Of a DNA stretch of 64,000 bases, positions 2,306 to 39,564 are shown in pieces. Source of the stretch: a virus (Duplodnaviria; Heunggongvirae; Uroviricota; Caudoviricetes); the IMG/VR virus record IMGVR_UViG_3300008113_000007, positions 1 to 64,000 of that record. One strand, given 5' to 3'. Below the pieces are notes generated by a model. That model searched no databases and was not told the DNA's origin. It saw only the letters and a program-made list of their open reading frames with translations. A program made the translations under genes and the position numbers. How positions within the stretch are numbered: position 1 is the first letter of the stretch; each line of letters begins with the position of its first letter.

Positions 2306-3268
2306 TTATTTGAGTATCTCCCTGAACTTTCCTATGGCGGACATTCCGAGTATTATCGGGTCTGCGTTGGTCTCCAACAATGGAATGTATTGTGCGATTA
2401 CGTGGTTGCACTCGAAAAGGCGTTCTACTCCTTTCCCGTTCTCTATGCACCAGTCTATGAAAGGCTTTCCTAGCGTGGCTAGCATCTCGGAAATCTTGTC
2501 CTGTCCGAAAGAGTTCATCAGGAAGTGGTAGATGTGGTCGTAGTCGTGTTCCCCGTAGACTATCTGGTAAAGCTCGTTCCTGTCCTTCAGCGAGACGTTT
2601 CCTGTGCTTGCCTCGTCGGATCCGGCGAGCAGGAAGTCGTCGACCTCTACGAGTATTTTTCGAAAGTCTGGAAACCAACGGTTTATGATTGGTACGAGTT
2701 GTTCCTTCGACATATCCTTACCTTCCACCGGAAGTATGACGTTCTGTATTCGTTTGTATATTTCCTGCTTCATGTACCTCTCTTCCTCTATGTTCTGACA
2801 GTCGAAGTCAATCATCTTTATCCTTGACTTCATTCCGCCCCTCACTTTGTCTATATGGTTGGTTGAGAGTATGAATCTGACGCCTTTGTTGTTGTACTTC
2901 TCTATGAATGCTTTCAGTGCGTCCTGGTACTGCGGCGATATTCTCTCGAACTCGTCGAGTAGCACGAACTTCTCGTCCGAGTTGGTCTCGAACATCGGCA
3001 CGGTCTTGCAGAACCTTGTCACCTCTTCCCTAAGGAAGTCTATTCCTGTCTCCTCTGAGCAGTTCACGTCGAGAAACGCAGTTTCTTTTGAGTACTCGCC
3101 TATGAGTATCCTGGCGAGGCTGGTTTTTCCCGTGCCGAAGTGGCCGTGGAATATGTAGTGCTGAGTTATACCGTTCTCGAATCTCTTACGTATTCTCGGT
3201 AGTAGAATGAGGTCTTCAATCCTTTTGGGTCTCCATTTTTCCCAGAGTAGTAGGTTTTTGCTTGACAT
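2306..3268 (-). CDS. clamp-loader AAA+ ATPase subunit (T4 gp44 / RFC small-subunit-like)
   Basis: N-terminal 'WEKWRPKRIEDLILLP' RFC box; Walker A 'GHFGTGKTSLARIL'; Walker B 'LLDEFERI'; sensor-1-like 'LSTNHIDKV'. Compare T4 gp44 'EQKYRPSTIDECILP...SPGTGKTTVAKAL'. Confidence 0.8.
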   Translation of the reverse strand: MSSKNLLLWEKWRPKRIEDLILLPRIRKRFENGITQHYIFHGHFGTGKTSLARILIGEYSKETAFLDVNCSEETGIDFLREEVTRFCKTVPMFETNSDEKFVLLDEFERISPQYQDALKAFIEKYNNKGVRFILSTNHIDKVRGGMKSRIKMIDFDCQNIEEERYMKQEIYKRIQNVILPVEGKDMSKEQLVPIINRWFPDFRKILVEVDDFLLAGSDEASTGNVSLKDRNELYQIVYGEHDYDHIYHFLMNSFGQDKISEMLATLGKPFIDWCIENGKGVERLFECNHVIAQYIPLLETNADPIILGMSAIGKFREILK

Positions 3269-3291
3269 TTTTTTAGGTGCAGAGTTTACTT

Positions 3292-3300
3292 AATATATAA
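3292..3300 (+). promoter_or_regulatory. late-promoter-like AATATATAA box 4 nt upstream of the ATG at 3305
   Basis: Identical motif and spacing as at 74-82. Confidence 0.4.
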
Positions 3301-5625: not shown

Positions 5626-5760
5626 TCACTACAAGACATAAATCGAAGAAATCTACCTCAGGGTAGATTTCTTCATTTATAAACTTTTGTAAATCAAAGG
5701 TATATAAAATCTCATAAAATCGCACAGGTGCATCGGCACCGAAAAAAATAGCGATTATTG

Positions 5761-6126
5761 ATGTACTTAAATAACAGAGAGCTTTATATCGAACTTGTTG
5801 TCAGCAAGGCACAGGGTAGACTAACCAGACCGGCACAGAAGATGCTGGAACTTCTTGCCAAGAAGACGATAAAAAAGATGAGGTACTGGTCCAACGACGA
5901 CAAGATGGACTGCTACCAGAGCGGGCTTCTCTACGTTTTCCAGAACTGGTACAACTTCAACGAGGAGAAGTCGGTCAACGCCTTCGCCTACTTCACCGAG
6001 ATATTCAAGCGCGGCATAGCCAAAGGTTACAACGACCTCTACAAAAAGAAAGGCGACAATGAACACCAAATCAGGCTCATCTCAATCGAAGGATCAAACG
6101 ACGGAATGGGACTCCACTCTCTTTGA
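5761..6126 (+). CDS. late sigma factor, T4 gp55-like (N-terminal/central part; reading frame appears to continue in +1 at ~6110-6126)
   Basis: 'YLNNRELYIELV' versus T4 gp55 'YVNNKELLQAII'; 'AFAYFTEIFKRGIAKGYNDLYKKKG' versus '[26 protein letters not shown]'. The first ATG is at 5761 (the track start at 5758 is a TTG). Confidence 0.7.
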   Translation: MYLNNRELYIELVVSKAQGRLTRPAQKMLELLAKKTIKKMRYWSNDDKMDCYQSGLLYVFQNWYNFNEEKSVNAFAYFTEIFKRGIAKGYNDLYKKKGDNEHQIRLISIEGSNDGMGLHSL

Positions 6127-6256
6127 CACTTACGACATAGTGGCAAGTCCTGGATTCGACGTCCGTAGTGCACTTTCCCGTTTCTGGAGACACGAGAGAC
6201 GTATCGAAAAAATCCGCGAGCTTTGGAACTTCGATGAGTCAAAGGACACCGTATAA
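6059..6256 (+). CDS. probable C-terminal continuation of the gp55-like gene in the +1 frame
   Basis: Frame-2 translation 'DSTLFDTYDIV...' resembles the gp55 C-terminal region 'DDDMVALVDETFIQDIY'; combined length ~165 aa, close to gp55 (185 aa). Confidence 0.45.
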   Translation: MNTKSGSSQSKDQTTEWDSTLFDTYDIVASPGFDVRSALSRFWRHERRIEKIRELWNFDESKDTV

Positions 6257-6258
6257 AA

Positions 6259-6284
6259 AAGACCCGTAAGGGTCTTTTTCTTTT
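6259..6284. terminator. bidirectional rho-independent terminator between the convergent gp55-like and GS genes (gaccc-gtaa-gggtc plus a T-run)
   Basis: Hairpin flanked by an A-run and a T-run. Confidence 0.6.
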
Positions 6285-7341
6285 AGTCTTCAATTAGAAC
6301 ATCGTCCGTGAGTATCGTCCTGACAATCCTCTCTACTACTAGGTAAGGATCTGCGTTCGATGCTGGCCTTCTATCCTCGATGTATCCTATCGCGTCAGCC
6401 TCGTTGATTGTCGACGGTATCCTAATCGACTTTGTCCTGTCCGCTATTCCCCAGCCGAAGTCCGTTATAGACGAAGTCTCGTTCGCACCGGTGAGCCTTG
6501 CCTCGTTGTTCTCGCCGTAGACTGCTATGTGCTCTGCGTGCCTTCTCGAAAGCTTCTCGCACATCTCTATTGCAATCTCCTTTTTGTTGACCTTGTCCTC
6601 TCTTATGGTCTTGGTCGAGAAGTTCACGTGCATTCCGGACCCGTTCCATCTCTCTCCCTCGAACGGCTTAGGATCGAGCTCTATCCTGTAGTCGTACTTC
6701 TCGCTCAGCCTGTGCAGTATGTATCTCGAAATCCACAGCTGGTCGGCTCCTTCCTCTGCCGTGACCGTTCCTACCTGGTACTCCCACTGGCCGAGTGCGA
6801 CCTCTGCGTTTATACCAGATACAGATATACCTGCCTTGATACATAGGTCGGCGTGCTCTTCTACGAATTCTCTACCTGAAACGTTGTTTCCGCCGACACC
6901 GCAGTAGTATTCGCCTTGCTCCCTAGGCTCGCCGTTCCATCCGAGTGGAAGTTCTGTCTTGTTGTCGAATATGAAGTACTCCTGCTCCCAACCGTACATT
7001 GTCTCGTCGTCGTTCTCACTGAGTATGTCTATCATCGCCGCCCTTGTGTTTGTCTCGTGTGGAGTTCCGTCCATGTTGTAGACTTCGCACAGCACGATTA
7101 TTCCGTCTTTCACGAACGGGTTGAGGAAGTAGTTCTTCGGAACCAACGCCAGCTCCGATTTGGAAGTCTCTGCCTGGTAGGTAGACGATCCGTCGAAGTT
7201 CCAGTTTGAAGCGGACTGCTTGCCCGATTTGAACTGTCTCAGTAGCTCTTCTGTGTCCCACGATGATTTTACAATCTTCGTCTTTGATCTTAGTTGCTGT
7301 GGTTTTGCACCATCAAGCCACACATACTCTAGTTTTTTCAT
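6283..7341 (-). CDS. glutamine synthetase, type II (eukaryote-like GSII) or a related gamma-glutamyl ligase
   Basis: GS signatures 'GEYYCGVGG' (GS 'G.YYC.VG'), ATP-binding 'KPFEGERWNGSGMHVNFSTK', 'VALGQWEYQVG', C-terminal 'SIRIP' arginine region; ~350 aa is typical of GSII. Confidence 0.85.
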   Translation of the reverse strand: MKKLEYVWLDGAKPQQLRSKTKIVKSSWDTEELLRQFKSGKQSASNWNFDGSSTYQAETSKSELALVPKNYFLNPFVKDGIIVLCEVYNMDGTPHETNTRAAMIDILSENDDETMYGWEQEYFIFDNKTELPLGWNGEPREQGEYYCGVGGNNVSGREFVEEHADLCIKAGISVSGINAEVALGQWEYQVGTVTAEEGADQLWISRYILHRLSEKYDYRIELDPKPFEGERWNGSGMHVNFSTKTIREDKVNKKEIAIEMCEKLSRRHAEHIAVYGENNEARLTGANETSSITDFGWGIADRTKSIRIPSTINEADAIGYIEDRRPASNADPYLVVERIVRTILTDDVLIED

Positions 7342-7512
7342 ATAAGTGCCTAATTTTTAGTTATCTATTAAAAAAAATAGGTCCTTTTTTACAAAACCGG
7401 TAAAAATATAGGGCCTATGTAACGGAATTAGTAAAAATATCTTATCGTGTCTTTTTGTGTTGCGTAAACTTTTCCTTTCTTTTGTCATAACAAAGGCATA
7501 ACAATAACGAAC

Positions 7513-7803
7513 ATGAACCGAGCCTACCTACAGGTCTGGTGTCTATCAGAGAGAGGACGTGATGTCTTGCCCGACGGCGGATCGCTGCACATCGACGTCC
7601 TTCAAAGAGACGCATACATAAAAGACATTTACTCAAAGAGACGCTCGGAAGTACCGAACGAGTACGAGTACCCCGTAGGCCTGGCCTTCGAGGTATTCCT
7701 GGACGATTCTTTGAACGACGAGCTCGTCGAGAACGGAAGCATACGCCTGAGCGAGGCCTCGTTGAGGAACCTATTCGGTATGGACGAAATAATGGTTAAG
7801 TAA
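7513..7803 (+). CDS. hypothetical protein
   Basis: ORF only. Confidence 0.35.
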   Translation: MNRAYLQVWCLSERGRDVLPDGGSLHIDVLQRDAYIKDIYSKRRSEVPNEYEYPVGLAFEVFLDDSLNDELVENGSIRLSEASLRNLFGMDEIMVK

Positions 7804-7804
7804 A

Positions 7805-8143
7805 ATGGTTGATTTATTCTACGCGGCACTGGTCGCTTTCGCGCTCAACGAGTTCTTTTTCGTTTTCAACAGGAAGCGTCTCGACACGAACTTCAAGAAC
7901 AAAGACGTCATGTCGGTCAAGAGGATAGATGTACTGCACTACATGCTGAAGGTGCTTTCCGTGTTTTGGCCGTTCATCGGTCTCATGTCCTCGATGTGGT
8001 CTATGTTTCTTGTGTTGATTTCTGTGTGGTTTCTGAAGTTTTTGCTTTACCACATCAGTGTTCGCACATACTCTGTCTGGACGATATTCTCTCCTTTTGT
8101 GAACATCGCTCTGTACCTTGTGATATTCTTCCTCAGACGTTGA
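7805..8143 (+). CDS. small hydrophobic/membrane protein, hypothetical
   Basis: Several predicted TM-like hydrophobic stretches. Confidence 0.4.
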   Translation: MVDLFYAALVAFALNEFFFVFNRKRLDTNFKNKDVMSVKRIDVLHYMLKVLSVFWPFIGLMSSMWSMFLVLISVWFLKFLLYHISVRTYSVWTIFSPFVNIALYLVIFFLRR

Positions 8144-8660
8144 ATCTCTTGAGGTTCTCCTCCGTGATTATTATGAACTCGAAGCCCTTCTTGTTGCACC
8201 ACTCGATCATCGTCTCCCACTTGCTCTTGTTCTTGTAGGCCATCTTCAGGTCGTACTCGAAGCCCTTCAGCTTCTTCGTTCCTTTCTCCGGTACCTGCAG
8301 TTTACCCTCTGTGAGTGCTATCACCATGTTGTACTCCTTCTGTGGCTTTACCTCGACGACGACCTCCCTGAGTACGCCGTCAGAGCTTCTCATCCTGTAG
8401 AAGAAGTCCGGGTAGTACCTGTGAGACTTGACCCTTGCGTCTCCGTTGTCGAAGTGTGTCATCTGGTAAGGTATCTCAAGGCATTCTGCCCCCCATTGTA
8501 TTATCTCGGGCTTGAGGTCGAGCCAGACCATTATCTTCTTCTCCCAGGAGCTCCTGAAGTAGACACCGCCTTGCGAGTTAAGTTTCAGAACCTTGTCTTT
8601 GTTCTTGGGTATGTAGTTTCCTGAGTTGTAGCTTGAGTTCGACGGTCTGGAGTTTATCAT
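8133..8660 (-). CDS. PD-(D/E)XK nuclease-fold protein (TnsA/endonuclease-like)
   Basis: '...YYPDFFYRM...GVLREVVVEVKPQKE' matches a PD...(D/E)xK arrangement; upstream 'SSWEKKIMVWLD...IPY' resembles TnsA/Vsr-type N-terminal modules. Confidence 0.45.
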   Translation of the reverse strand: MINSRPSNSSYNSGNYIPKNKDKVLKLNSQGGVYFRSSWEKKIMVWLDLKPEIIQWGAECLEIPYQMTHFDNGDARVKSHRYYPDFFYRMRSSDGVLREVVVEVKPQKEYNMVIALTEGKLQVPEKGTKKLKGFEYDLKMAYKNKSKWETMIEWCNKKGFEFIIITEENLKRFNV

Positions 8661-8679
8661 AGTCCGGCATTTTTGGTTT

Positions 8680-8688
8680 TATATATAA
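8680..8688 (+). promoter_or_regulatory. late-promoter-like TATATATAA box upstream of the 8703 gene
   Basis: Motif family recurs upstream of many genes. Confidence 0.35.
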
Positions 8689-8702: not shown

Positions 8703-9398
8703 ATGGGCCATCTAATCGAGCTCGTCAAGCTGAACCGCCTTGTATTCGGCGATTTGCCTTTGCAGTACAAAGAAAACACTATGGAGTTGCTCGAGCGGTA
8801 CAAAAGGACCGACGATGAGGTCAAGGCCATAAGGCTCGCAGAGATAAAGCCAGGACTTTTCTATTTCTTTCACTACCTCGACGATTCCAACTGGATAAAG
8901 TACTCTCCGGTCTTCGTGATAGACTTCAAGAAGTTCGGTAACATAATCGTGCTGAACTGCATCAACCTGAACTTTATACCTCTTCAGATAAGGCCGTCCA
9001 TATTCGACCCTTACATTCAGGAGAAGGACTTCGAGAACAAGAACTTCTTCCTGAAGACGAAGTTCGAGACGGTTTACAAAGAGCTCAGGAAGTACGGATT
9101 CCAGTGGTCGATAATGGAGTACAACGTCGCGCAGATACAGAAGGTGCACAGGATCTCGTTTGATCTTCTTCCGAAGTTTCTGATGTCGGGACACCCTAAG
9201 GCTAAGTACGATCCGGCGAAGCTCATCCAGATTTGGAAGAAGAAGATTGGTGAGCAGGACAAGCGCGACCAGGAGATGATGCAGGCCAACATACAGGAGT
9301 TCTACGACTTCGAGAACGAGATATCCGACAAGTACGAGGCACTGAAGGGACACATACAGCGCCTGCAGAGATCGACCAAAAAGTACGGCGGTGGATGA
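8703..9398 (+). CDS. hypothetical protein
   Basis: ORF with good coding periodicity; the antisense ORF 8712..9515 is judged spurious. Confidence 0.5.
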   Translation: MGHLIELVKLNRLVFGDLPLQYKENTMELLERYKRTDDEVKAIRLAEIKPGLFYFFHYLDDSNWIKYSPVFVIDFKKFGNIIVLNCINLNFIPLQIRPSIFDPYIQEKDFENKNFFLKTKFETVYKELRKYGFQWSIMEYNVAQIQKVHRISFDLLPKFLMSGHPKAKYDPAKLIQIWKKKIGEQDKRDQEMMQANIQEFYDFENEISDKYEALKGHIQRLQRSTKKYGGG

Positions 9399-9431
9399 TT
9401 TTTCCTTATCTTTGAATAAATAAAAACAAAG

Positions 9432-9878
9432 ATGAGATACACCACATATATTTCCGCAGCGGACAAGCTTTCCGCACTTGGCCAGAAGGAGTTGGCTAAG
9501 AAGTTTCTGACACACGCAAACGACATCGTGAACAAGAGGGTCTCAGAGTTCGACTTCGACATACTGGTGGGTCAGGTGAAGACCTTCAACGGTGCTAAGT
9601 TCGCAGAGACGCGCATTTTGAGGGAGAAGGAGGCCAACACGATAATGTTCATCTTCAAGTCTGGGACGAACACGCACCGCATAAACACAACTCTTAGACA
9701 CAACGGCGAAATCGTATGGCACGACGGAAACCACTTCAGCAACCGAAAGTCTGTGAGATCCTTCGAAAAGCTCATACAGATAATAGTCGAATATAGCATG
9801 GACGCTCAGAAGCTTTTGGCCGAGATGCAGATAAGTCCTTCCAGTCTGAAGGTCATACAGAGAACCTTCTATTTGTAG
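9432..9878 (+). CDS. hypothetical protein
   Basis: ORF followed by a terminator. Confidence 0.45.
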   Translation: MRYTTYISAADKLSALGQKELAKKFLTHANDIVNKRVSEFDFDILVGQVKTFNGAKFAETRILREKEANTIMFIFKSGTNTHRINTTLRHNGEIVWHDGNHFSNRKSVRSFEKLIQIIVEYSMDAQKLLAEMQISPSSLKVIQRTFYL

Positions 9879-9914: not shown

Positions 9915-9929
9915 GGGGCAGCCGTTTTT

Positions 9930-9938
9930 TATATATAA
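9930..9938 (+). promoter_or_regulatory. late-promoter-like TATATATAA box upstream of the portal gene
   Basis: Motif lies 20 nt upstream of the ATG at 9959. Confidence 0.4.
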
Positions 9939-9958: not shown

Positions 9959-11701
9959 ATGGCCTCTTATAACTATTTCAATAACAACAATAACAACAAC
10001 CAGGCGTTCGGTATTCAGAACTCCGGTGAGAACAAAGGCTTCTTCAACCGTATACTGAGGAACCTGTCGAACCACGGTATGAACTATGACGACATGATCA
10101 TTCGCAATCAGGTCGGTGTTGGAATAAACGAGGATCCTTACGCATCTAAAGGAAATTCGATGTATGATTTCTTTAGTCAACGAGCAGTGGCGTCGGTTCT
10201 CGGCCGCAAGTCCGTTCCGTATCTTGATCGTTCGTATCCCGACAAGAGGAGAATACTGAGAGAGTACTCGATTAAGGACGAGATCAGGGACTTCGTGAGC
10301 CAGGTGGCCGACGAGTGTGTGGTTTACAACGATGACAGGGATTTCTGCTCTGCGCGCGCTCTTTCCACCGGATACAGCAAGGAGATACAGGACAAATACC
10401 TCGAGTACTTTGAAAGGATATACAACAAATACGGCTTCTCTGACAGTGTCACGGCTTTCAACCTGATAAAGGACTTCCTAATCGACGGGTACGTTGCTAT
10501 GGAGATAGTCTACGATGACAAGAAGAAGAACATAATCGCTTTCAACCGACTGAGACCTGAGACCATCGTCCCTGCATACGAGCCAAACGTGGGTCATCTA
10601 TGGATACAGTATCCTGAGGATCCTCAGCTCAGAAGGATTTTTCTCGACTCTCAGATAGTTTTCATATCTTACTCTACTCAGAACGACTTCTCAGAGACTT
10701 CCTACGTGGAAGGTCTCATCAAGCCATACAACCAGCTGAAGATACTCGAGCAGACGAAGATAATGTTCAACATCATCAACGCGACGCTCTACCAGGAGTT
10801 CAAGATTCCAATCAAGGGTCTTTCCAGGCAGAGGGCAGAGGAGCAGATTGGTCAGCTGATACACGACTACTCCGAGGAGGTCGAGTGGGACGACACTCTG
10901 GGAACGCTGACAATCAACGGTTCTAAGCACCTTCCGTTCAACAAGCAGATTTGGTTTCCTGAGGGCGACGCTGGATCGCCGTCGATGGAACTTAAGTCTC
11001 CGCAGGGTCACGACCTCAACGAGGACGGTATGCTTAAGTGGTTCCACCAGGCGCTCAAAAGGGCGTCTAAGATACCTCTGAACCGATTCGAGGGCGAGGC
11101 CGGCGGTGGTAACCTCATAACTGACGCGGCCGAGATGACGCGCGACGAGATAAAGTTCCACAACTTCATCGGAAGACTACGTGCCAACTTCAAAGAATTG
11201 ATAGTCAAGCCTTTGAAGCTACAGCTGCTTATAGAGTTTCCTGAACTTATAGATGACGATAAATTCCTAAACGAGGTAGACATCGAGTTCTACTCGAACC
11301 AGGTATTCGAGGAGTGGAAGAAACTTGGTAACCTTGAGAAGAAAGCCGGTATAGTCGGAACGCTACTTGGTGTTATGAACGGTGAGAAGCCTTACTTCCA
11401 CATCGAGTGGATTATGGACAACGTATTCAAGTTGTCTCCTGAAGAGAAGGCCGAGAACGCAAGATACTGGGCCAAGGATCCAACTGCGGCCGGTTCGGCG
11501 CCTGAAGGCGGTGGTGAGGCGGGTGCTCAAGGCGGCGGCGGCGGTGGCGAGATGGGTGCCCAAGGTGGTGGCGAAGCTCCTGCACAGGGAGGTGCTCAGG
11601 CTCCTCCTGCCGAGGGTGGTGGCGAGGCTCAGGCTCCTCCGGCACAGGGAGGTGCTCAGGCTCCTCCGGCACAAGGCGGTGGTGGCGAGTTCGAGTTCTA
11701 A
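9959..11701 (+). CDS. portal vertex protein (T4 gp20-like) with a poly-Asn N-terminal tract and a Gly/Ala/Gln/Pro-rich C-terminal low-complexity extension
   Basis: 'QVADECVVYNDDRDF' versus T4 'EIVSDAIVYEDDTEV'; 'PYNQLKILEQTKIMFNI' versus 'PANQLKLLEDAVVIYRI'; 'WFHQALKRASKIPLNRF' versus 'WFRQALYMALRVPLSRI'; C-terminal '...EFEF' like T4 '...EDF'. Confidence 0.9.
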   Translation: MASYNYFNNNNNNNQAFGIQNSGENKGFFNRILRNLSNHGMNYDDMIIRNQVGVGINEDPYASKGNSMYDFFSQRAVASVLGRKSVPYLDRSYPDKRRILREYSIKDEIRDFVSQVADECVVYNDDRDFCSARALSTGYSKEIQDKYLEYFERIYNKYGFSDSVTAFNLIKDFLIDGYVAMEIVYDDKKKNIIAFNRLRPETIVPAYEPNVGHLWIQYPEDPQLRRIFLDSQIVFISYSTQNDFSETSYVEGLIKPYNQLKILEQTKIMFNIINATLYQEFKIPIKGLSRQRAEEQIGQLIHDYSEEVEWDDTLGTLTINGSKHLPFNKQIWFPEGDAGSPSMELKSPQGHDLNEDGMLKWFHQALKRASKIPLNRFEGEAGGGNLITDAAEMTRDEIKFHNFIGRLRANFKELIVKPLKLQLLIEFPELIDDDKFLNEVDIEFYSNQVFEEWKKLGNLEKKAGIVGTLLGVMNGEKPYFHIEWIMDNVFKLSPEEKAENARYWAKDPTAAGSAPEGGGEAGAQGGGGGGEMGAQGGGEAPAQGGAQAPPAEGGGEAQAPPAQGGAQAPPAQGGGGEFEF

Positions 11702-11747: not shown

Positions 11748-12194
11748 TGCGGCTTTGTCGCTTTTTGGGTGGTCGAAGTAAAGCGTCTTGTGACCTCGTT
11801 TGTTGTCGTAGTACCTGACCTTCACGTCCAGTCCTTCGTCGAGTATCGTCTTGATTGTTTGTCCAATTTGGCTAGGCAGGATCTCACCTGATATTTTCAC
11901 CTCGAGGATCTGCTCGTCCTTTATTATGAAGCTGATTGTGTCCGTCCTGAACGCTGCATTGTGTATGTACTGGATGGCGTCCGTGTTAGTGTATACGAGC
12001 AGGTTGGCATCTTCGATGTCGAACTGAACCTTCTTTCCCTGGTTTAGAAGCCCGGTGATCCTGACCTCTCTTTTGAACTCGGCCCACTGTTTGTACCTTC
12101 TTAGCATGCTCTCGAAGGATTCCAGGGTGATGCCTTCCTCGAGCTCTACATCGAAGGTGCTTACAACCATATCTCTTTCCTTCAGCTTTCCCAT
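11745..12194 (-). CDS. hypothetical protein, translationally coupled to the upstream RNase gene
   Basis: Start codon overlaps the stop of the 12194..14092 gene. Confidence 0.45.
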   Translation of the reverse strand: MGKLKERDMVVSTFDVELEEGITLESFESMLRRYKQWAEFKREVRITGLLNQGKKVQFDIEDANLLVYTNTDAIQYIHNAAFRTDTISFIIKDEQILEVKISGEILPSQIGQTIKTILDEGLDVKVRYYDNKRGHKTLYFDHPKSDKAA

Positions 12195-14092
12195 CAGTTG
12201 AACTTTATGAAGTCAATCTGTTTTTTCTCTAGGTCCACGGACTTGATGACGATCTTGATTGGATCGCCTAGCCTTATCTTTTCGCCGAACTCGTTCATCA
12301 CGGCGTAGCTGTCAGGATAGGCAGTCCATTTTCCGCCCATTTCCGAGATTCTTATCATTCCCTCGCACTTGCTCTCCGTGAGCTCTACGTAGATTCCTCT
12401 CTCGAGTACGCCTGATACGATTCCGTCGAACACCTGTCCGATTCTGTCCTGTAGGTACTCCGCCTGCTTGTACTTCACCGAGTCTCTCTGTGCCTTCGTC
12501 GCTACGACCTCCTGCTTGGAGATCCATTCGCACTGCTTGTCCAGCTCGCCGTGGTTTATCTCTTTGTTGTAGCCTTCTGCGTTGAGCGCCTTCGAGAGAA
12601 GTCTGTGTGCGAGTATGTCACTATACCTCCTTATTGGTGATGTGAAGTGTGAGTAGTGTTGGAACCCTAGTCCGTAGTGTCCGATGTCTTTGGTCGAGTA
12701 CTTCGCCTTCTGCTGAGCCCTTATGATTAGGGTGGTTATGATGTTCTCCTCTGGTGTTCCTTTGGAGTCTCTCATAAGCTGGTTTATGGCCAGCTTGGTC
12801 TTCTCTGCTGAGTTTCCGTAGTTTATCATATAGCCAAGCCCGGAGATGAAGGTCTTCACGTGCTCTAGCTTTTCCTCTGCTGGCTCTTCGTGTATCCTGT
12901 TCACGCACGGAAGGTGCCTAGACTTTATGAAGCGCGCGACCTCCCTGTTGGCGAGTAGCATGTACTCCTCGATGAGGTGGTTGGCGTCCTTCTGTTCCTT
13001 AAGGTAAACGCCAACCGGCTTCTTCCCGTCTCCGTCGAGTTTGAACTTGACCTCTACCCCGCCGATTTCCATCGAGCCTCCGTTCATCCTTCTCTTCCTC
13101 ATCTTCTTTGCCAGTCGGTCTAGCTCGAGTATGGCCTTCTCTGTGTCTAGCTCGGCGTTGCCTCTCTCGATTACCTCCTGTGCCATCTCGTATGAGAAGT
13201 CTTTGTCGACCCTTACCGCGGTTCTTCCGAACCAGCTGTCCTCTATCCTACCGTCGTTGTTCAACTCGACTATGACTGAGTAGCACAGCTTGTCACTTCC
13301 GGATTTCAGTGAGCATATTCCGTTTGATAGCTTGTGTGGTATCATCGGCACGCACCTGTCAACTAAGTAGACGGAGCTGGAGCGCTTGTACGCCTCTTTG
13401 TCTAGTTCGCTTCCCGGCCTTACGTAGTGTGATACGTCTGCTATGTTTATTGCGATTAGTCTTCTTCCGTTCTCGAAGTGTAGAGAGATTGTGTCGTCCG
13501 CGTCCTTCGAGTCGTGAGGGTCAATACCGATCGTGGTCCACGACCTTATGTCTCTCCTCTTCTTTATCTCCGACTCCGGTATGACCTCTGTTATGAGCTC
13601 CGCCTCGTTCAGTACTTCCTGCGGGAAGTCGATAGGTAGGTTGTATTCGTACATTATGGCGTTCATTTCCGTCTCGTTCTCGCCTTTCAATCCCAGTACT
13701 TTGGTTATCCTTCCTCTCGGAGATTTCTTTTCCTTTTCCCAGTCGATCATCTCGACGATGACTTTCTGGCCATCCTGTGCTTTGTGGTCTCCTTTGATGT
13801 AGAAGTCGACGACCATCTTCGGGCTGTCTGGGACAACGAAGGTGTGGTTCTTGCTAACCTGTGCAGTTCCTACGAAGGTCGTCTTGAACCTCTCTAGCAC
13901 GTCGACGACCTTCGCCTCCATTTTGCGTTCGCCTTTGAACAGAACTGCCCTGACCTTATCGAGGTGCAGGGCGTTGGCGGTCTTCTTCTTGTGCACGAAG
14001 AACTCTCTTTCGTCGATTTTGATTGTTGCGTTACCGGAACCGGTGAACTCTATCTGGGCCTCTATCGTGTCGCCCTCTGTGTATTTACTCAT
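12194..14092 (-). CDS. RNB-family 3'-5' exoribonuclease (RNase R / RNase II-like) with N-terminal OB/cold-shock domains and a C-terminal S1 domain
   Basis: RNB motif I 'IDPHDSKDADDTISL'; catalytic 'HYGLGFQHYSHFTSPIRRYSDILAHRLL'; C-terminal S1-like 'GQVFDGIVSGVLERGIYVEL'. Confidence 0.85.
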   Translation of the reverse strand: MSKYTEGDTIEAQIEFTGSGNATIKIDEREFFVHKKKTANALHLDKVRAVLFKGERKMEAKVVDVLERFKTTFVGTAQVSKNHTFVVPDSPKMVVDFYIKGDHKAQDGQKVIVEMIDWEKEKKSPRGRITKVLGLKGENETEMNAIMYEYNLPIDFPQEVLNEAELITEVIPESEIKKRRDIRSWTTIGIDPHDSKDADDTISLHFENGRRLIAINIADVSHYVRPGSELDKEAYKRSSSVYLVDRCVPMIPHKLSNGICSLKSGSDKLCYSVIVELNNDGRIEDSWFGRTAVRVDKDFSYEMAQEVIERGNAELDTEKAILELDRLAKKMRKRRMNGGSMEIGGVEVKFKLDGDGKKPVGVYLKEQKDANHLIEEYMLLANREVARFIKSRHLPCVNRIHEEPAEEKLEHVKTFISGLGYMINYGNSAEKTKLAINQLMRDSKGTPEENIITTLIIRAQQKAKYSTKDIGHYGLGFQHYSHFTSPIRRYSDILAHRLLSKALNAEGYNKEINHGELDKQCEWISKQEVVATKAQRDSVKYKQAEYLQDRIGQVFDGIVSGVLERGIYVELTESKCEGMIRISEMGGKWTAYPDSYAVMNEFGEKIRLGDPIKIVIKSVDLEKKQIDFIKFN

Positions 14093-14608: not shown

Positions 14609-16786
14609 ATGAAACCAGTATTGATTGTAGAAAACTCTACTAACTCTCTTGTGAGGGAAAGTGGCGGGACTGGTAAGAAGGATTATGTATTGGGCGGTAC
14701 ATTCACCGAGTTCGACATTAAGAACAGAAACGAGAGAGTGTACACGGCCGACAGATTCCTTCCTGCGCTTACTGAGATGAACGAGAGGATGAACAACCTC
14801 GGAGTCGTCTACGGTGAGTTCGACCACCCGGATGTTTTCGATACTTCTCTTTCTAGGGCGTCTCACATAATCACGAAAGCTGATTATATCAAGGAGCAGA
14901 ACCTAGTGGCGGGTGAAATCAGGTTACTTAGTACTTATTGGGGTAAGGAAGCAAAGGCACTCGTCGACGACGGCTGCCCTCTTTTTGTTTCTTCTCGCGC
15001 CGCAGGTATTACTGAATCTGATGGTACAGTCTCATTGAAGAAGCTTTTCACTTACGACATCGTGGCGGACCCTGGGTTTGCTTCGGCTAAGATGAGTGTG
15101 AAGGTCCTTAATGAGTCACTTGGCTTTGATAACCCGAAATCTAACTTTAGGATATACGAGATGTCCGATGAGTCAAAAATCAACGATTTATTCAACATGA
15201 ACAAAAACGAGTACGTTACTAAACAGCAGTTGACTGACTACTCTCAGTATTTGGTCAAGGAGTTGGCTTCTACTAAGAAGGAGGTTAAGAGTGCCATCAC
15301 TAAGGGCAACATGAACCCTAAGAGGCTTGAGCAACTTCTCGAGTACTACGAGGAGCTCAACAAGACAAATTCACAAGTTGTGAAATACCTAGACTACCTG
15401 GCTGAGAAAGTTCAGATCATGGTAAACGAAAACAAGTCTTTGAAGGAGACTACTGACAAGCTTATCAAGCACAACGACTACCTCGCTGAGAACCTTGAGA
15501 AGGCTGTAAACTATTCTGAGTACCTTGCTGAGAACCTAGACAAGAACATCGCTTATTCTGAGTATGTTGCTGAGAACCTAGACAAGAACATCTCTTATTC
15601 TGAGTACCTTGCAGAGAACCTTGATAAGAACATCGCTTATTCTGAGTATATCGCAGAGAACCTCGACAAGAACATTTCCTACTCTGAGTACATTGCAGAG
15701 AACCTCGACAAGAACATCGCTTACAGCGAATACCTTGCTGAGAACCTAGACAAGAACATCGCTTATTCTGAGTACATTGCAGAGAACCTCGACAAGAACA
15801 TCGCTTATTCTGAGTACATCGCTGAGCACGTAGACAACTCTATTGCTTATTCTGAGTACCTCGCTGAGCACGTAGAGGGTAACATCGCTTATTCCGAGTA
15901 CCTCGCTGAGCACCTCGATGACAACATCGCTTACTCTGAGTACATCGCAGAGAACCTCGACAAATCAATCTCTTACGCAGGAATGATTACCGAGAAACTC
16001 AACGGCGGAAAAGTTTTCGAATCAGTTGAGGACAACTTCCCATCACTTACTGCTCACGGTTTTGAGGCGGTAGAGGATGACGATGATGATGCTGATGCTG
16101 ACTACGATAATATGAACAACGACGACGACGACGCAGATTGCGGCCCTGGTATCGCCGAGGTTTCACCTGAGAAGGTACACGCACACAACGCTGATGCAGA
16201 TATGGATCACGATGACGACGCAGATGCTGACGCTGACGCACACAACTGGAACCGCGAGGTATCAGGACACAACGAGTCTGAGTTGTCTTCACAAATAAAT
16301 ATGCTAATCGAAGAAGCTAAAAAACGTAAAGTTTCCGAGACATCTGACCTGAACTTCCTTAAGTTCTTGTCTAAATCACAGGTAGATAGTTTCTACGCGC
16401 TCACAAACGAAGAGCAAGAAGCAGTTAAACTTCACATAAACGAAAGAAGTTACTTCACACAGAAGGACGTGCTTACACTCATCTCTGAGGCGCTTTCTAC
16501 CAAAACTGAATCTCTTGAGGAAAGAGTGATCAGAATGATGCCTGAAAACACCAAGGCTATCTGGGCTCAACTTACCGAATCGGCTAAGAAGTCTATACTT
16601 TCACAAGCAAGACTTTACCCTGAGGAAATGTTGATGACCGAATCACAAGTAGAGCACTTCTGGGCTACCAGAGCACTCAAGAAAAACGAGTCTACTAAGA
16701 AGCTTGTATCTCACGACATCATCCAAGAGGATAGATTGTCTGACAACGAGATGAACGCTATCATGGAGAGGTTCAAAAACGTGTAA
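14609..16786 (+). CDS. prohead core protease (T4 gp21-like, residues ~1-210) fused to a scaffold-like C-terminal region with ~12 tandem 14-aa repeats and poly-acidic tracts
   Basis: 'PVLIVENS...GGTFTEFDIKNRNERVYTADRF' versus T4 gp21 'PQLLIESW...GIFMQAEVVNRNKRLYPKRIL'; 'GEFDHPDVFD' versus 'GELNHPPRAN'; 'VSSRAAGITESDG' versus 'VSSRGLGSLTDTNEG'. The repeats and the acidic C-terminus resemble the gp22 scaffold. Confidence 0.85.
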   Translation: MKPVLIVENSTNSLVRESGGTGKKDYVLGGTFTEFDIKNRNERVYTADRFLPALTEMNERMNNLGVVYGEFDHPDVFDTSLSRASHIITKADYIKEQNLVAGEIRLLSTYWGKEAKALVDDGCPLFVSSRAAGITESDGTVSLKKLFTYDIVADPGFASAKMSVKVLNESLGFDNPKSNFRIYEMSDESKINDLFNMNKNEYVTKQQLTDYSQYLVKELASTKKEVKSAITKGNMNPKRLEQLLEYYEELNKTNSQVVKYLDYLAEKVQIMVNENKSLKETTDKLIKHNDYLAENLEKAVNYSEYLAENLDKNIAYSEYVAENLDKNISYSEYLAENLDKNIAYSEYIAENLDKNISYSEYIAENLDKNIAYSEYLAENLDKNIAYSEYIAENLDKNIAYSEYIAEHVDNSIAYSEYLAEHVEGNIAYSEYLAEHLDDNIAYSEYIAENLDKSISYAGMITEKLNGGKVFESVEDNFPSLTAHGFEAVEDDDDDADADYDNMNNDDDDADCGPGIAEVSPEKVHAHNADADMDHDDDADADADAHNWNREVSGHNESELSSQINMLIEEAKKRKVSETSDLNFLKFLSKSQVDSFYALTNEEQEAVKLHINERSYFTQKDVLTLISEALSTKTESLEERVIRMMPENTKAIWAQLTESAKKSILSQARLYPEEMLMTESQVEHFWATRALKKNESTKKLVSHDIIQEDRLSDNEMNAIMERFKNV
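15476..15980 (+). repeat. in-frame tandem repeat, 42-nt unit x ~12, encoding N(I/S)(A/S)YSEY(L/I/V)AE(N/H)(L/V)DK
   Basis: Direct inspection of the translation; every unit carries an (L/I/V)-A-E tripeptide. Confidence 0.85.
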
Positions 16787-16873: not shown

Positions 16874-18589
16874 ATGTCACACATTAGAATAGACAAGGCG
16901 AAAGCCACTAAAAAGTGGGCACCGGTTCTCGAGAACATGGGTGTCACAGGTGATAGAGTAGAATGGATGGCGGAGTACGCTGAGTTCCACTCAATCAACG
17001 AGAACGCGTATGTAAACGCTTCTAACGTAGGCGGTATGGGCGCTGTATTGAACCCGGTTGTTGGTGACCTCGCAGGTAACCCAAGAACAGGTAACGTACT
17101 TTCACCAGTTGCTGGTTCAGGTGACGTAGGTCAAAACCTTCTTCCAGTTGCGATGAAGATTGCAGCTCAGACTATCGGTCTTGACCTCGTAGCTGTTAAG
17201 CCGTCTCCAGGTCCGAAAATCGACCTTCTTTACATCGACTTCCAATACGACGATGTTAGGTCTACAGACGGAACTGACGAGAGACCACAGGTGTTCAAAA
17301 TCAAATTGAGCTCTGATGACATGATCAAAGTAAAAGACACTGTTACTAAATTTGTTGGTAACGCAGTTCTTACTACTGGCGGTCTTACAAGTGGTAGACT
17401 TTTCGTAGACAACATTCAAGGTAGCTCTGATCTTAAGACTACTGAGTCTGCTGCTGCTCTTGCTACTACTAAGTACAAAAAACTCGAGTTCCTCGGATAC
17501 TCAAGGGTAGACGGTTACCCAATGTTCAGAGCTTGGAGACAAGACAACACAGCTCACACTGCTACTGGTGTTGCTGCCGCATCTACTCGTGCTTTCTGGT
17601 CTTTCGATCAAACAAGAAACACGTTCAACCCAACACAGTCTATGGCTGATCAGATTTCGTACATCGGTACTGCGTCTGTAACACCACAAGAGATTCAGTT
17701 GATTTCTGCACTTGAAGACCACATCCCTGGTTTCTCTGCAAACTGGACAGCTAACATCTCTTCTGGAGACTACCCAATGAACAGGAAACAAGATGACGAT
17801 TCTTACGCTGGTGTTATCGGACCTAAGATCTCTTCTAAGACTATCCAAGTTGGTACTATCGAGGTATCTTCTGCACTCAGAAGAACTGAGATTGAGGACA
17901 TCAAAGCTAACACAGGTATGGACATCGTACAAAAGATGGAATCTATCCTCGTGAACGAGCTTTCCCAAACTATCTCTAAGCAAATCGTCGCTAAGATTTT
18001 CGAAATGGGTGACCTCAACAGAACATCTGCACCTGCATTCGGTGGAAGTGCAACTATCACTGGTCACACAATCTTCGACCTTGACACAGCATACGCTTCT
18101 GGTGGTTCCCTTGGTGGTGAGACTACTCACGCTGTACAAAGGAAGCTTATCACTAAGATAGCTCACGCTTCTAACTTCATCGCGACTGAGGGTCGTGTAG
18201 GTCCTGCTCAATACCTTATCACAAACGGAGGTCTTGCTGCTGCTCTACAAGACATCGCTGGTTACACAATCAACCCAGTGAAATCTAAACTCAACGGACA
18301 AGGTCAGCTTTATCCAGTTGGTTCAATAGGCGACATCGCTATCTACGTTGACCCATACATGAGATACAACGACAACAGAATCGTCCTTGGTAGGAAGAAC
18401 AACCCTGATCAACCAGGTATCATCTTCGTTCCTTACCTTATGGCACAATCTATCTCAGTTATTTCTGAGGCGACTTTCGCACCAAGAATGCTCTTGAGAT
18501 CTAGATATGCTGTTGCAGAAGTTGGTTGGTTCCCACAAAAACAATTCATGACTATCCAAGTAAGAGATGTAGCTCAATTGCTCAACTAA
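16874..18589 (+). CDS. major capsid protein (T4 gp23-like)
   Basis: 'KATKKWAPVLENMGV' versus T4 gp23 'KAELLNKWKPLLEGEGL'; 'LLPVAMKIAAQTIGLDLVAVKPSPGP' versus 'IGPAVMGMVRRAIPNLIAFDICGVQPMNSP'; 571 aa; lies downstream of the protease/scaffold gene as in T4. Confidence 0.9.
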   Translation: MSHIRIDKAKATKKWAPVLENMGVTGDRVEWMAEYAEFHSINENAYVNASNVGGMGAVLNPVVGDLAGNPRTGNVLSPVAGSGDVGQNLLPVAMKIAAQTIGLDLVAVKPSPGPKIDLLYIDFQYDDVRSTDGTDERPQVFKIKLSSDDMIKVKDTVTKFVGNAVLTTGGLTSGRLFVDNIQGSSDLKTTESAAALATTKYKKLEFLGYSRVDGYPMFRAWRQDNTAHTATGVAAASTRAFWSFDQTRNTFNPTQSMADQISYIGTASVTPQEIQLISALEDHIPGFSANWTANISSGDYPMNRKQDDDSYAGVIGPKISSKTIQVGTIEVSSALRRTEIEDIKANTGMDIVQKMESILVNELSQTISKQIVAKIFEMGDLNRTSAPAFGGSATITGHTIFDLDTAYASGGSLGGETTHAVQRKLITKIAHASNFIATEGRVGPAQYLITNGGLAAALQDIAGYTINPVKSKLNGQGQLYPVGSIGDIAIYVDPYMRYNDNRIVLGRKNNPDQPGIIFVPYLMAQSISVISEATFAPRMLLRSRYAVAEVGWFPQKQFMTIQVRDVAQLLN

Positions 18590-18607: not shown

Positions 18608-18639
18608 AAAAGCCACTCGAAGAGTGGCTTTTCTCTTTT
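18608..18639 (+). terminator. rho-independent terminator after the capsid gene (agccactc-gaa-gagtggct plus a T-run)
   Basis: 8-bp hairpin plus TTTCTCTTTT. Confidence 0.65.
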
Positions 18640-18648
18640 AATATATAA
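18640..18648 (+). promoter_or_regulatory. late-promoter-like AATATATAA box 4 nt upstream of the ATG at 18653
   Basis: Same motif and spacing as at 74-82 and 3292-3300. Confidence 0.4.
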
Positions 18649-23006: not shown

Positions 23007-23495
23007 ATGATAAACAGCTTCAGCGGAAGATACAGCTTCCTTTCCAACTTCTACCCGTGCAAGATTTTGCACCAGGGCATAACGTACCCCTCGGTCGAGC
23101 ACTTCTACGTCGCGATGAAGTGCAACGGCCCGCAGCAGATGAACGGCGTGCAGTACACCCCTATTGACTTCCGTGAGATGCTCGCGCGAATACCGGAGCC
23201 CGGTGTCGTCAAGAAAATAGGCAACAAGATAGTTCTCAGAAAGGACTGGGACGACAAGAAGCTGGAGTTCATGAACTGGGCGGTTCGTGAGAAGTTTTCG
23301 GACAACAAGCTGGCTGAGTTACTTCTCATGACCGGCGACGAGCCACTCGTCGAGGGGAACAACTGGCGAGACACGTTCTGGGGAGTGTGCGACGGCAAGG
23401 GCCAGAACCACCTAGGTAAGATACTGATGCAGGTCAGGGACGAGCTTCGCGGAACGCAGAGGACCGGCCTGGAGGCTGTGCTAGGTCTTAGGTAA
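23007..23495 (+). CDS. NADAR (YbiA-like, DUF1768) family protein
   Basis: 'FLSNFYPCKI...YPSVEHFYVAMK...WGVCDGKGQNHLGKILMQVRDEL' matches NADAR signature blocks. Confidence 0.75.
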   Translation: MINSFSGRYSFLSNFYPCKILHQGITYPSVEHFYVAMKCNGPQQMNGVQYTPIDFREMLARIPEPGVVKKIGNKIVLRKDWDDKKLEFMNWAVREKFSDNKLAELLLMTGDEPLVEGNNWRDTFWGVCDGKGQNHLGKILMQVRDELRGTQRTGLEAVLGLR

Positions 23496-39563: not shown

Positions 39564-39564
39564 A

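Follow-up and report, generated by a model that had tools for sequence, protein, structure and literature searches.

A predicted type II glutamine synthetase at a conserved position in the structural module of a huge phage of the Mahaphage clade

Introduction

A gene of nitrogen metabolism located between a late sigma factor gene and a head-completion gene of a phage raises the questions of which enzyme it encodes, how it came to this position and what it might do during infection. Such a gene is found in the stretch of 64,000 nucleotides analysed in this study (positions 1 to 64,000 of the IMG/VR record IMGVR_UViG_3300008113_000007, Caudoviricetes), referred to as the window. A first-pass annotation made from the sequence alone had described it as a complete gene for a "eukaryote-type" (type II) glutamine synthetase (GS) and had proposed three roles for the gene product, namely rewiring of the host nitrogen metabolism, ligation of glutamate to an amine, and a contribution to DNA hypermodification.

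Reports on GS genes of huge and jumbo phages had already appeared in 2025 and 2026. For HPGC, 248 GS genes in 247 huge phages are given (bioRxiv 10.1101/2025.02.27.640493), 9 of 25 "moraphage" genomes harbor a GS gene (PMC12619734), and further listings are found in PMC13037316 and PMC13172472. The catalogued genes are, like the one in the window, auxiliary nitrogen genes of aquatic phages with predicted Bacteroidota hosts, and a role in nitrogen supply has been proposed for them (bioRxiv 10.1101/2025.02.27.640493; PMC12619734). The type of GS, its active site, the genomic position described here and the history of insertion were not found in the accessible parts of these sources. The closest relative of the window (L001) originates from the sample series of one moraphage.

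Results

Assignment to the type II glutamine synthetases

The ORF is complete, as the first-pass annotation had stated (Table 1), and its product is, as judged from profile matches and a structure model, a type II glutamine synthetase (GSII). By far the best NCBIfam model was GlnII (NF041605) with 350.6 bits, followed by GSI with 72.7 bits. Since the GlnII score is below the equivalog cutoff of 500, the phage protein is placed on a divergent GSII branch outside the curated bacterial equivalog. Residues 104 to 336 matched the Pfam domain Gln-synt_C (PF00120; 72.2 bits, gathering score 24). Gln-synt_N (PF03951) reached 32.5 bits compared to a gathering score of 33.4, with profile positions 5 to 81 out of 82 aligned; precomputed PF03951 matches exist in most of the relatives, and the beta-grasp strands are visible in the AlphaFold (AF2) model with pLDDT >90. 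The three GS motifs named in the first-pass annotation were all recovered (GEYYCGVG, LGQWEYQVG and KPFEGERWNGSGMHVNFS), although the third follows the pattern KPxxGxxWNGSGxHxNxS and is thus one residue off the spacing given there (KPxxGxxNGSGxHxNxS).

Table 1. Features at the GS locus and the distant thymidylate synthase gene (positions in the window)
Feature	Position	Strand	Remarks
gp55-like late sigma factor gene	5758..6126	+	PHROG 234 "late sigma transcription factor", E 3e-7
Hairpin of a bidirectional intrinsic terminator, AAAAAGACCC-GTAA-GGGTCTTTTT	6256..6279	both	Shared by GS and the gp55-like gene, which converge on it
Type II glutamine synthetase (GSII) CDS, predicted	6283..7341 (including stop codon)	-	352 aa, ATG to stop
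Promoter-like box, TAATAGATAA	7361..7378	-	Preceded by a T8 run; ends 20 nt ahead of the GS start codon
Two small ORFs (96 and 112 aa)	7513..8143	+	Divergent from GS; kept in relatives
gp4-like head-completion gene (TnsA-like N domain)	8133..8660	-	PF08722, 56.4 bits; PHROG 218 "head closure", E 7e-32
ThyA-type thymidylate synthase ORF	62881-63717		NF002495, PDB match

The subunit length is inside the GSII size class (approximately 330–380 aa), and GSII chains of the PDB matched the protein with 269 to 293 bits (approximately 290 bits for the yeast, plant and human enzymes). The AF2 monomer model (pLDDT 90.8) could be superposed on the GlnII of S. coelicolor (4bax), maize GS1a (2d3a) and human GS (2qc8) with TM values of 0.86–0.88 and an rmsd of 2.3–2.6 Å, and the best 50 matches of a structure search with this model were all GSII. 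GSII enzymes are decamers of two pentameric rings with the active sites located between subunits, and a decameric assembly is presumed for the phage GS as well. With bacterial GlnII (NF041605, e.g. 4bax) the protein shares the fold, a length of approximately 340–350 aa and the catalytic residues at 42–50% identity (tblastn; up to 52% over a trimmed alignment), but unlike these enzymes it is phage-encoded, scores below the equivalog cutoff and contains a helical insertion of about ten residues (residues 30–39, seen in the alignment and in the AF2 model) just before the D50 loop. Eukaryotic GSII (yeast Gln1, 3fky; human GLUL, 2qc8/8dnu; maize, 2d3a) were the top PDB matches (275–293 bits, 45–48% identity) and share the catalytic, glutamate and ammonium residues; in contrast to them, the phage GS has no N-terminal extension.

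Of the designation "eukaryote-type", the assignment to GSII holds, while the term itself is a historical label only, bacterial GlnII and eukaryotic GSII being equally distant from the phage protein (42–52% identity). The closest cellular GlnII among 185,579 species genomes shared 50% identity with the phage GS in tblastn and 52% when the trimmed alignment was used. For the deep placement of the phage clade relative to bacterial and eukaryotic GSII, neighbor-joining bootstrap values were only 9–34%, and a specifically eukaryotic origin is unsupported by the sequence comparison. No near-identical DNA match to the window was found among 50,697 phage records. An apparent gap at 55–60% identity among the 120 matches listed is an effect of the listing and was not considered as evidence. 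L008, a contig of a Flavobacteriaceae MAG, was weighed as a host clue. GSII copies in giant-virus MAGs were 41–47% identical to the window GS. According to PMC3379637 (2012) and PMC9270025 (citing Ha et al. 2021), giant viruses (Mimiviridae-like) also encode a GSII; they belong to another virus realm and infect protists. In published trees, giant-virus GS group with eukaryotes and large-phage GS with prokaryotes (PMC13172472).

Active site and selection

The active-site residues were compared to the human enzyme, the numbering of which was checked against PDB 8dnu. All six metal ligands are present (E119, E121, E180, E187, H238 and E322; human E134, E136, E196, E203, H253 and E338). Kept as well are the glutamate and flap contacts R282, R302 and E288 (human R299, R319 and E305), the ammonium contacts D50, S53 and Y146 (D63, S66 and Y162) and the ATP/phosphate contacts N240, S242, R247, R307, Y320 and R324 (N255, S257, R262, R324, Y336 and R340). 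D50 is the residue that in GS enzymes extends into the active site of the adjacent subunit. Among the contacts compared, the sole differences from the human enzyme concern two peripheral ATP contacts, W130 and K333, which are replaced by M and D, respectively. Thus, the Glu/His metal ligands and the Asp50' equivalent (D50), which the first-pass annotation had singled out for a check, are in place together with the flap residue E288.

Across the 120 relatives listed, the active-site residues are invariant or nearly so. That the entire catalytic site is so strictly conserved shows, at the level of sequence, that catalysis itself is under selection, for whichever metabolic purpose. The dN/dS values of 0.037 to 0.151 (seven pairs with unsaturated dS) indicate that the gene is maintained by purifying selection. 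From the residues and the AF2 model we infer that the phage GS is catalytically competent.

A conserved gene order in the structural module

The GS gene lies, as initially annotated, between the gp55-like gene and small phage genes (Table 1). A T4-type portal gene is located beyond the gp4-like gene, and the wider flanks comprise gp44, gp3-like, gp55-like, gp4-like, T4-type portal and gp23 genes. Metabolic genes are not usually located in a structural/late module like this one. The order gp4-like gene, two small ORFs, GS and gp55-like gene is shared with at least 30 independent phage contigs from different samples (L001–L003, L085–L106, L108 and L125, plus distant members on contigs of 135–233 kb) and with the published huge-phage genomes LR745206.1 (634 kb) and LR756502.1 (642 kb). 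In the relatives, the gp55-like gene is 85–100% identical and always adjoins GS, and the pair of small ORFs, for which no Pfam family match was obtained, is found at the matching position with 29–62% identity. No recurring metabolic partner gene was found beside GS in the relatives; genes for a GATase and RpiB are located near GS in L003 alone, so that a recurring partnership was dismissed. Among approximately 50 window ORFs scanned, neither a glutamine-consuming amidotransferase nor any other nitrogen gene was detected.

The window is assigned to the Mahaphage clade of huge phages because of its capsid protein, which is 72% identical to the capsid proteins of the 634- and 642-kb Mahaphages. 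The hosts of Mahaphages are predicted to be Bacteroidetes/Bacteroidota (PMC7162821). Both genomes (Al-Shayeb et al. 2020, PMC7162821) have the identical slot with flanks that are 70–87% identical to those of the window, whereas their GS shares no more than 47% identity with the window GS in tblastn (51–52% in the trimmed alignment) and falls into another sub-lineage, the nearest members of which are L110, L111 and L113 (72–74%). Replacement of the GS in place was considered for these two genomes and tree incongruence was sought, but flank and GS trees were without topological conflict and differ in the amount of divergence alone. The two records are unannotated, and the main text of PMC7162821 does not mention glutamine.

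The slot is empty in the deeper relatives LR756504 and LR756501. In LR756504, the gp4-like and gp55-like genes are direct neighbors and the intervening GS is missing, while LR756501, a 735-kb phage, encodes a different GS of another lineage at another locus. Since the slot is empty in these genomes and the GS of LR756501 is of other descent and position, GS genes seem to have been captured at least twice in the Mahaphage clade. In our reading, the GS of the window is an accessory metabolic gene that has become fixed in a Mahaphage sub-lineage and is passed on vertically.

Putative expression signals

Downstream of GS, the hairpin common to the two convergent genes is followed by T-runs on each strand and has folding energies of -13.8 (+) and -15.4 (-) kcal/mol (z -4.4 and -4.0). 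On the 5' side of GS no terminator-like structure was detected (z -1.2), so that of the reported bracketing by terminators only the downstream one stands. The box upstream of the start codon, TAATAGATAA, differs by a single mismatch from TAATATATAA, a sequence found 18 times in the window compared to 1.8 expected copies (18 reached in none of 100 shuffles) and mostly just upstream of structural genes. A block TTTTTTAATA[A/G]ATA upstream of GS is conserved in the relatives. The box is therefore a putative phage promoter. A T4-type late promoter (NATAAATA) was considered for the upstream block and dropped (AATARATA, 7 matches versus 2.6 expected); the TAATATATAA box was preferred because it is far more enriched. 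A scan for sigma-70 promoters around GS gave no match. Neither a glutamine riboswitch nor another RNA family was identified with Rfam (whole window at gathering scores, positions 6050 to 7850 at E values up to 5), the weak sRNA matches near GS being caused by the terminator hairpin alone, and no tRNA was found in the window.

Discussion

The most likely role of the phage GS, and in our estimate a clearly probable one, is ordinary ATP-dependent glutamine synthesis serving the nitrogen demand of the phage. The rewired nitrogen supply suggested by the first-pass annotation is the best-supported reading and agrees with the proposal in the literature. The gene would be transcribed from the phage-type box, with the transcript ending at the terminator that also serves the late sigma factor gene. 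The enzyme would then form glutamine from glutamate, ammonium and ATP and provide the phage with its own glutamine supply during infection. Purines, pyrimidines, NAD and amino sugars receive amide nitrogen from glutamine, which is also an amino acid in its own right. A GSII would presumably be outside the regulation of the host's own GS and might in this way be of help where a very large genome has to be replicated and packaged in water poor in nitrogen. Enzymatic activity and a physiological benefit are both presumed here. The connection to nucleotide synthesis we only infer, because no amidotransferase gene was detected in the window ORFs scanned and no partner gene recurs beside GS in the relatives.

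Other functions of the protein have to be weighed against glutamine supply. An active GS could be selected for a different purpose, e.g. ammonium detoxification while host macromolecules are turned over on a massive scale or moonlighting on host nitrogen regulators, which appears rather unlikely. The location in the structural/late module and a box like those before structural genes suggest late expression of GS, and late timing fits a supply of nucleotide precursors less obviously. Some bacterial GSI enzymes bind transcription factors, which sets a precedent for regulator binding, but to our knowledge this is not known for GSII, and evidence of any partner is missing. The conserved catalytic site indicates that catalysis is what is selected, though it does not distinguish between metabolic purposes. 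Members of the GS superfamily have also been recruited as gamma-glutamyl-amine ligases; PuuA and GlnA3 share the fold and the ATP-dependent acyl-phosphate chemistry. A PuuA-, GlnA2- or GlnA3-like ligase acting on another amine (a polyamine, ethanolamine or other metabolite), the second role suggested initially, would be in line with this precedent, with a score below the GlnII equivalog cutoff and with the clade-specific helical insertion, which lies beside the D50 loop, a part of the ammonium pocket of the neighboring subunit. However, D50, S53, Y146 and the flap residue E288 are kept and invariant among the 120 relatives listed, the model for gamma-glutamylputrescine synthetase (NF045547) scored 51 bits (cutoff 650) compared to 350.6 for GlnII, and the close structural neighbors are all bona fide glutamine synthetases. 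Moreover, PuuA and GlnA3 are GSI-type and, as far as we know, the same is true of the characterized amine ligases in general, none being a GSII. With the ammonium pocket intact, an amine ligase is disfavored and considered improbable.

Participation of the GS in DNA base hypermodification is very improbable. It had been derived from a presumed gp42-like hydroxymethylase gene at 62881 and has lost its basis because this gene is ThyA-type. The ORF obtained 323.2 bits with the thymidylate synthase model NF002495 (cutoff 327), and its best PDB matches were ThyA structures (1b02, 1bko) with that of B. subtilis at the top. It retains the uracil-specifying Asn ("agyiNkiqy", aligned to "GNPFNVFQY" of B. 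subtilis ThyA) at the position where gp42 has Asp, so that a T4 gp42-type dCMP hydroxymethylase was rejected. A dUMP hydroxymethylase activity of this thymidylate synthase homolog is possible as far as the sequence tells, and in some relatives the gene adjoins the capsid gene and is some 10 kb away from GS; within the window, however, 55 kb separate the two genes. No hypermodification enzyme family was detected by Pfam or PHROGs in about 50 of the approximately 60 larger window ORFs, nor was a hypermodification gene found with GS in the relatives examined, and we know of no thymidine or cytidine hypermodification pathway that uses a GS. An origin of the GS from host DNA in a chimeric assembly, or as a recent and decaying passenger, has a negligible probability and is refuted by synteny and selection. 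The slightly raised GC content of the kilobase from 6 to 7 kb (0.499, neighbors 0.425–0.457) would fit foreign DNA, but the slot is shared by at least 30 independent contigs and two curated complete genomes, dN/dS is 0.04–0.15, cellular copies are at most 52% identical, the active site is intact and the gene carries a promoter-like box of the phage and has its terminator in common with the gp55-like gene. The synteny check proposed in the first-pass annotation thus excluded host contamination.

A more comprehensive scenario combines at least two independent GSII captures with a copy that became fixed in the gp55/gp4 slot, was possibly swapped there for a second GSII lineage and is driven by a late promoter, the other capture being located elsewhere in the 735-kb phage. 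This combination is put forward tentatively and is on the whole doubtful. If it is true, not just nucleotide metabolism but also glutamine synthesis would be a host function that limits the rate at which very large virions are built in Bacteroidota, and the phage GS would bypass the GS of the host without being regulated.

The presence of GS in huge phages is published already, and the window adds detail rather than a discovery. Added are a complete active site and the assignment to type II, a fixed slot in which the gene is under strong purifying selection throughout a large clade of uncultured phages, expression signals of phage type and evidence that Mahaphages captured GS at least twice independently. 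With these details, the window GS is therefore a well-defined candidate for a first biochemical test of a phage GS. Such an enzyme would let the virus control the entry of ammonium into biosynthesis, which matters for how nitrogen moves through lakes and oceans and for how phages with genomes of 200–700 kb meet the cost of replication.

Glutamine synthetase gene and its product

The product of the glutamine synthetase (GS) ORF is, as judged from sequence and model comparison, a type II glutamine synthetase (GSII or GlnII). The ORF and the motifs named in the first-pass annotation are seen in the sequence (GEYYCGVG, LGQWEYQVG and KPFEGERWNGSGMHVNFS), the third with a spacing that had been quoted wrongly by one residue. 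The Pfam model Gln-synt_C matched with 72.2 bits (cutoff 24) and Gln-synt_N slightly under its cutoff (32.5 vs. 33.4 bits). Among the NCBIfam models, GlnII scored highest by a wide margin with 350.6 bits, not reaching the equivalog cutoff of 500, followed by GSI (72.7), GSIII (55.2) and gamma-glutamylputrescine synthetase (51 bits). GSII enzymes of yeast, insects, plants, mammals and Streptomyces in the PDB were matched with 269-293 bits, GSI enzymes with <46. A confident AlphaFold2 model (pLDDT 90.8, pTM 0.92), for which 44 family sequences were aligned, superposes on 4bax (S. coelicolor GlnII), 2d3a (maize GS1a) and 2qc8 (human GS) with TM scores of 0.86-0.88, and the top matches of a structure search were all GSII (50/50). 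Pfam, NCBIfam and PDB matches and the superposition thus agree with the phage-encoded GSII proposed earlier.

The active site was compared in an alignment with human GS (a sequence identical to PDB 8dnu at 373/373 residues; overall identity of the phage protein to human GS 45%) and the 120 closest database relatives. The metal ligands (E119, E121, E180, E187, H238, E322), the glutamate-binding arginines R282 and R302 with the flap glutamate E288, the ammonium pocket (S53, Y146 and D50, the retained Asp50 prime equivalent) and the ATP and phosphate contacts (N240, S242, R247, R307, Y320, R324) are present and invariant or almost so across these relatives. Of the contacts compared with the human enzyme, just two peripheral ones on the adenine side are altered (W130 to M, K333 to D). 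Residues 30-39 form a clade-specific insertion of about 10 residues, which alignment and AlphaFold2 place as a confidently predicted helix directly before the D50 loop. Since every residue class is present and no catalytic Glu or His is missing, the assignment to GSII stands.

Phage lineage and genomic context

The capsid protein of the window shares 72% identity with its counterparts in LR756502.1 (642 kb) and LR745206.1 (634 kb). Identity falls to 51% for LR756504.1 (636 kb) and LR756501/3 (735 kb) and to about 28% for the Prevotella Lak phages and the Tenacibaculum jumbo phages. The LR genomes are the largest in the "Mahaphage" clade described by Al-Shayeb et al. 2020, with predicted Bacteroidetes hosts; glutamine is not mentioned in the main text of that study (PMC7162821).

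GS relatives number in the thousands in a large protein database, and the best 120 span 92% to 58% identity. The contexts examined comprised three contigs (69, 316 and 328 kb), 24 IMG/VR contigs and three of the most distant members (contigs of 135-233 kb). All are phage contigs with the order gp4-like, two small ORFs, GS, gp55-like (121-122 aa), a conserved 427-aa protein and gp44-like; the closest relative was additionally found on a 241-kb contig. The dN/dS values of GS are 0.037-0.151 for pairs with unsaturated synonymous sites. Among 185,579 bacterial and archaeal species, represented by one genome each, the best cellular match reached an identity of 50% (tblastn) or 52% (trimmed alignment), the top matches belonging to Marinimicrobia, Bdellovibrionota and Acidimicrobiia. 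The conserved phage context, the dN/dS values and the distance of all cellular matches together exclude a contaminant or a decaying passenger gene, and host contamination in particular is contradicted by the synteny across independent phage contigs.

Coordinates of features in the window (GS, glutamine synthetase)
Feature	Position	Strand	Remark
gp44-type clamp loader	2306-3268		neighbour of GS
gp3-like protein			weak match; neighbour of GS
gp55-like late sigma factor	5758-6126		neighbour of GS
65-aa ORF	6059-6256	+	+1 frame
Bidirectional hairpin AAAAAGACCC-GTAA-GGGTCTTTTT	6256-6279		between convergent gp55-like and GS genes; T-runs on both strands
GS	6283-7341	-	ATG start at 7341 end; 352 aa
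Promoter-like box T8-AATAGATAAC	7361-7378		ends 20 nt upstream of GS start; one mismatch to TAATATATAA
TAATATATAA, example sites	73-82, 3291-3300, 8679-8688, 9929-9938, 18639-18648, 31960-31969, 38550-38559, 49032-49041, 49070-49079, 58958-58967
gp4-like head-completion protein	8133-8660		neighbour of GS
T4-type portal	9959-11701		near GS
RNase R homologue	12194-14092	-	RNB and S1 domains
gp23-type capsid protein	16874-18589		near GS
SPFH/Band-7 protein, Dam-type N6-adenine DNA methyltransferase, weak Nei/Fpg-like DNA glycosylase	21264-22208, 23550-24482, 61147-62022	+
NADAR-domain protein and ADP-ribosyltransferase-like match	23007-23495 (+), 27133-27615 (-)
Gly_rich_2 region and giant ORFs	38586-41461; 31989-38528, 42114-47015	-
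Sugar/small-molecule modifying cluster	50282-52609, 56628-57410, 58051-58710, 58976-59509	-
ThyA-type thymidylate synthase	62881-63717	+	NF002495, 323.2 bits (cutoff 327)

In LR745206.1 (L166, 6001-7077) and LR756502.1 (L167, 6001-7056), GS occupies the identical slot between the gp4-like and gp55-like genes, and its flanks match those of the window with 70-87% identity. The two GS proteins share just 47% identity with that of the window by tblastn (51-52% over the trimmed alignment); their nearest relatives lie on three other viral contigs (72-74%), followed by Marinimicrobia (about 55%). The flanks of the relative L003 are similarly diverged, yet its GS is 71% identical to that of the window. 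The divergence in the two genomes may reflect in-place replacement by another GSII or accelerated evolution, neither of which is favoured, since small trees of flanks and GS are without clear topological conflict. The slot lacks GS in LR756504 (L172, 31762-32793), where 163 nt separate the gp4-like from the gp55-like gene and a search of the 636-kb genome gave no GS match, and in LR756501 (L171, 16460-18129), where the gap is 850 nt. The GS of LR756501.1 (L165, 149783-150769) lies in a different context, with about 73 kb between it and the capsid gene, and is closest to a Marinimicrobia GlnII (59%). Given the empty slots in deeper Mahaphages and this different, distant GS, the simplest reading would be that GSII entered the slot in a common ancestor of the window's sub-lineage and was captured separately in the 735-kb phage.

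In a neighbour-joining tree (288 sequences, 329 columns, 100 bootstraps), the GS group of at least 58% identity, all metagenome or phage-contig sequences, forms one bipartition with a support of 63, rising to 86 when the 270-kb viral contig L109 is added. All deeper nodes, including the one that would place this clade nearer to bacterial GlnII or to eukaryote/giant-virus GSII, have supports of just 9-34. The first-pass label "eukaryote-type" therefore serves here as a historical name only.

Terminator, promoter-like box and further genes

The GS gene had been described as bracketed by terminators. Just one strong hairpin was found, on the 3' side (dG -13.8 and -15.4 kcal/mol, z about -4), while the 5' side does not fold into a significant structure (z -1.2). 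Relatives keep a block TTTTTTAATA[A/G]ATA about 20-28 nt ahead of the GS start codon. With up to one mismatch, TAATATATAA occurs 18 times in the window compared to 1.8 expected (0/100 shuffles reach 18), almost always intergenic and directly upstream of genes (portal, gp3-like, gp4-like and giant structural ORFs). As a gp55-like sigma factor gene adjoins GS, the box is plausibly a candidate late-type phage promoter for this factor. No sigma-70-like promoter was found in a scan around GS, no glutamine riboswitch or other RNA family by Rfam and no tRNA in a tRNA search. The gp55-like protein is unusually short with 122 aa (T4 gp55 has about 185 aa). A 65-aa ORF overlapping the 3' end of its gene reaches the terminator and is kept at the protein level (82% in L001, 67% in L091 and 43% in L086, all relatives); it may represent a separate small gene, or may extend the C-terminus of the late sigma factor through a frameshift.

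Several other genes of the window were annotated. The RNase R homologue (TIGR02063, 596.6 bits; cutoff 597.85) adjoins the portal gene in relatives (52-98% identity). A NADAR-domain protein (90 bits) and a weak match to ADP-ribosyltransferases of polyvalent proteins, under the Pfam cutoff, may serve ADP-ribosylation-related host takeover or anti-defence. The sugar cluster encodes a GT1+GT9 fusion glycosyltransferase (775 aa), a GT2 glycosyltransferase, a Methyltransf_24 protein and a Vat/CatB-like hexapeptide acetyltransferase (164 bits, under family cutoffs). In a locally GC-rich stretch (0.55-0.59 vs. a window value of about 0.48), three Gly_rich_2 paralogues stand in tandem; the giant ORFs on either side (2179 and 1633 aa) presumably encode tail or fibre proteins. 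An SPFH/Band-7 protein, a Dam-type methyltransferase and a weak DNA glycosylase match were also found. In distant relatives, the ThyA-type homologue immediately adjoins the capsid gene. Other host-like genes occur near the GS region of relatives. L003 alone carries RpiB as the gene next downstream of GS and a protein with a class-I glutamine amidotransferase domain (9127-9564 and 16045-16578). ClpS and a HAD_SAK_1 phosphatase lie close to the terminase gene in several relatives (L001, 16974-17059; L004, 12314-12589; L168, 20737-21018). None of these genes recurs beside GS.

Known viral glutamine synthetases

Viral GSII was described for Mimivirus-like sequences in 2012 (PMC3379637), and expression of giant-virus GS is reported in PMC9270025. 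A 2025 preprint lists 248 GS genes from 247 huge phages (215 from freshwater or marine habitats) and proposes a role in nitrogen supply (10.1101/2025.02.27.640493), with which the nitrogen-metabolism role suggested in the first-pass annotation agrees, the purpose being one that we infer. Further reports describe GS in 9 of 25 freshwater jumbo "moraphages" with predicted Bacteroidota hosts (PMC12619734), one of which shares a sample series with the closest relative L001; a 2026 glnA tree grouping large-phage copies with prokaryotes (PMC13172472); and glnA among jumbo-phage auxiliary genes (PMC13037316). Within the available portions of this literature, no biochemistry, GS type, active-site state or fixed slot is reported for phage GS. 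Given these reports, the window adds a well-characterised example of an already known huge-phage gene and is not the first.

Function of the phage glutamine synthetase

The intact ammonium pocket and the low score of the PuuA-type model (51 bits) count against a gamma-glutamyl-amine ligase related to PuuA, which had been considered. Participation in DNA hypermodification had been proposed on account of a gp42-like hydroxymethylase at 62881. This gene is instead of the ThyA type by its NF002495 score, by its best PDB matches (B. subtilis ThyA, 1b02 and 1bko) and by the retained base-reading Asn, where gp42 has Asp, which removes the stated basis of the proposal; no hypermodification gene family was found among the window ORFs scanned. 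GS may instead have another metabolic purpose or moonlight. No amidotransferase gene was found among the ORFs scanned in the 64-kb window, no metabolic gene recurs beside GS in relatives, and GS is located in the structural/late module, all of which cautions against over-interpretation of its purpose.

The evidence from sequence and structural model supports an active, canonical glutamine synthetase kept by selection within the phage genome. Such an enzyme would supply glutamine, from which purine, pyrimidine, NAD and amino-sugar synthesis draw amide nitrogen, and hundreds of kb of genome would constitute a large nitrogen sink. Because GSII is without the adenylylation control of GSI and Bacteroidota rely mainly on GSIII and GSI, the phage GSII would offer a compact enzyme that escapes regulation by the host. 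A more tentative and rather doubtful extension is that Mahaphages recurrently capture GSII and place it under late-promoter control, which would imply that glutamine supply limits the replication of huge phages.
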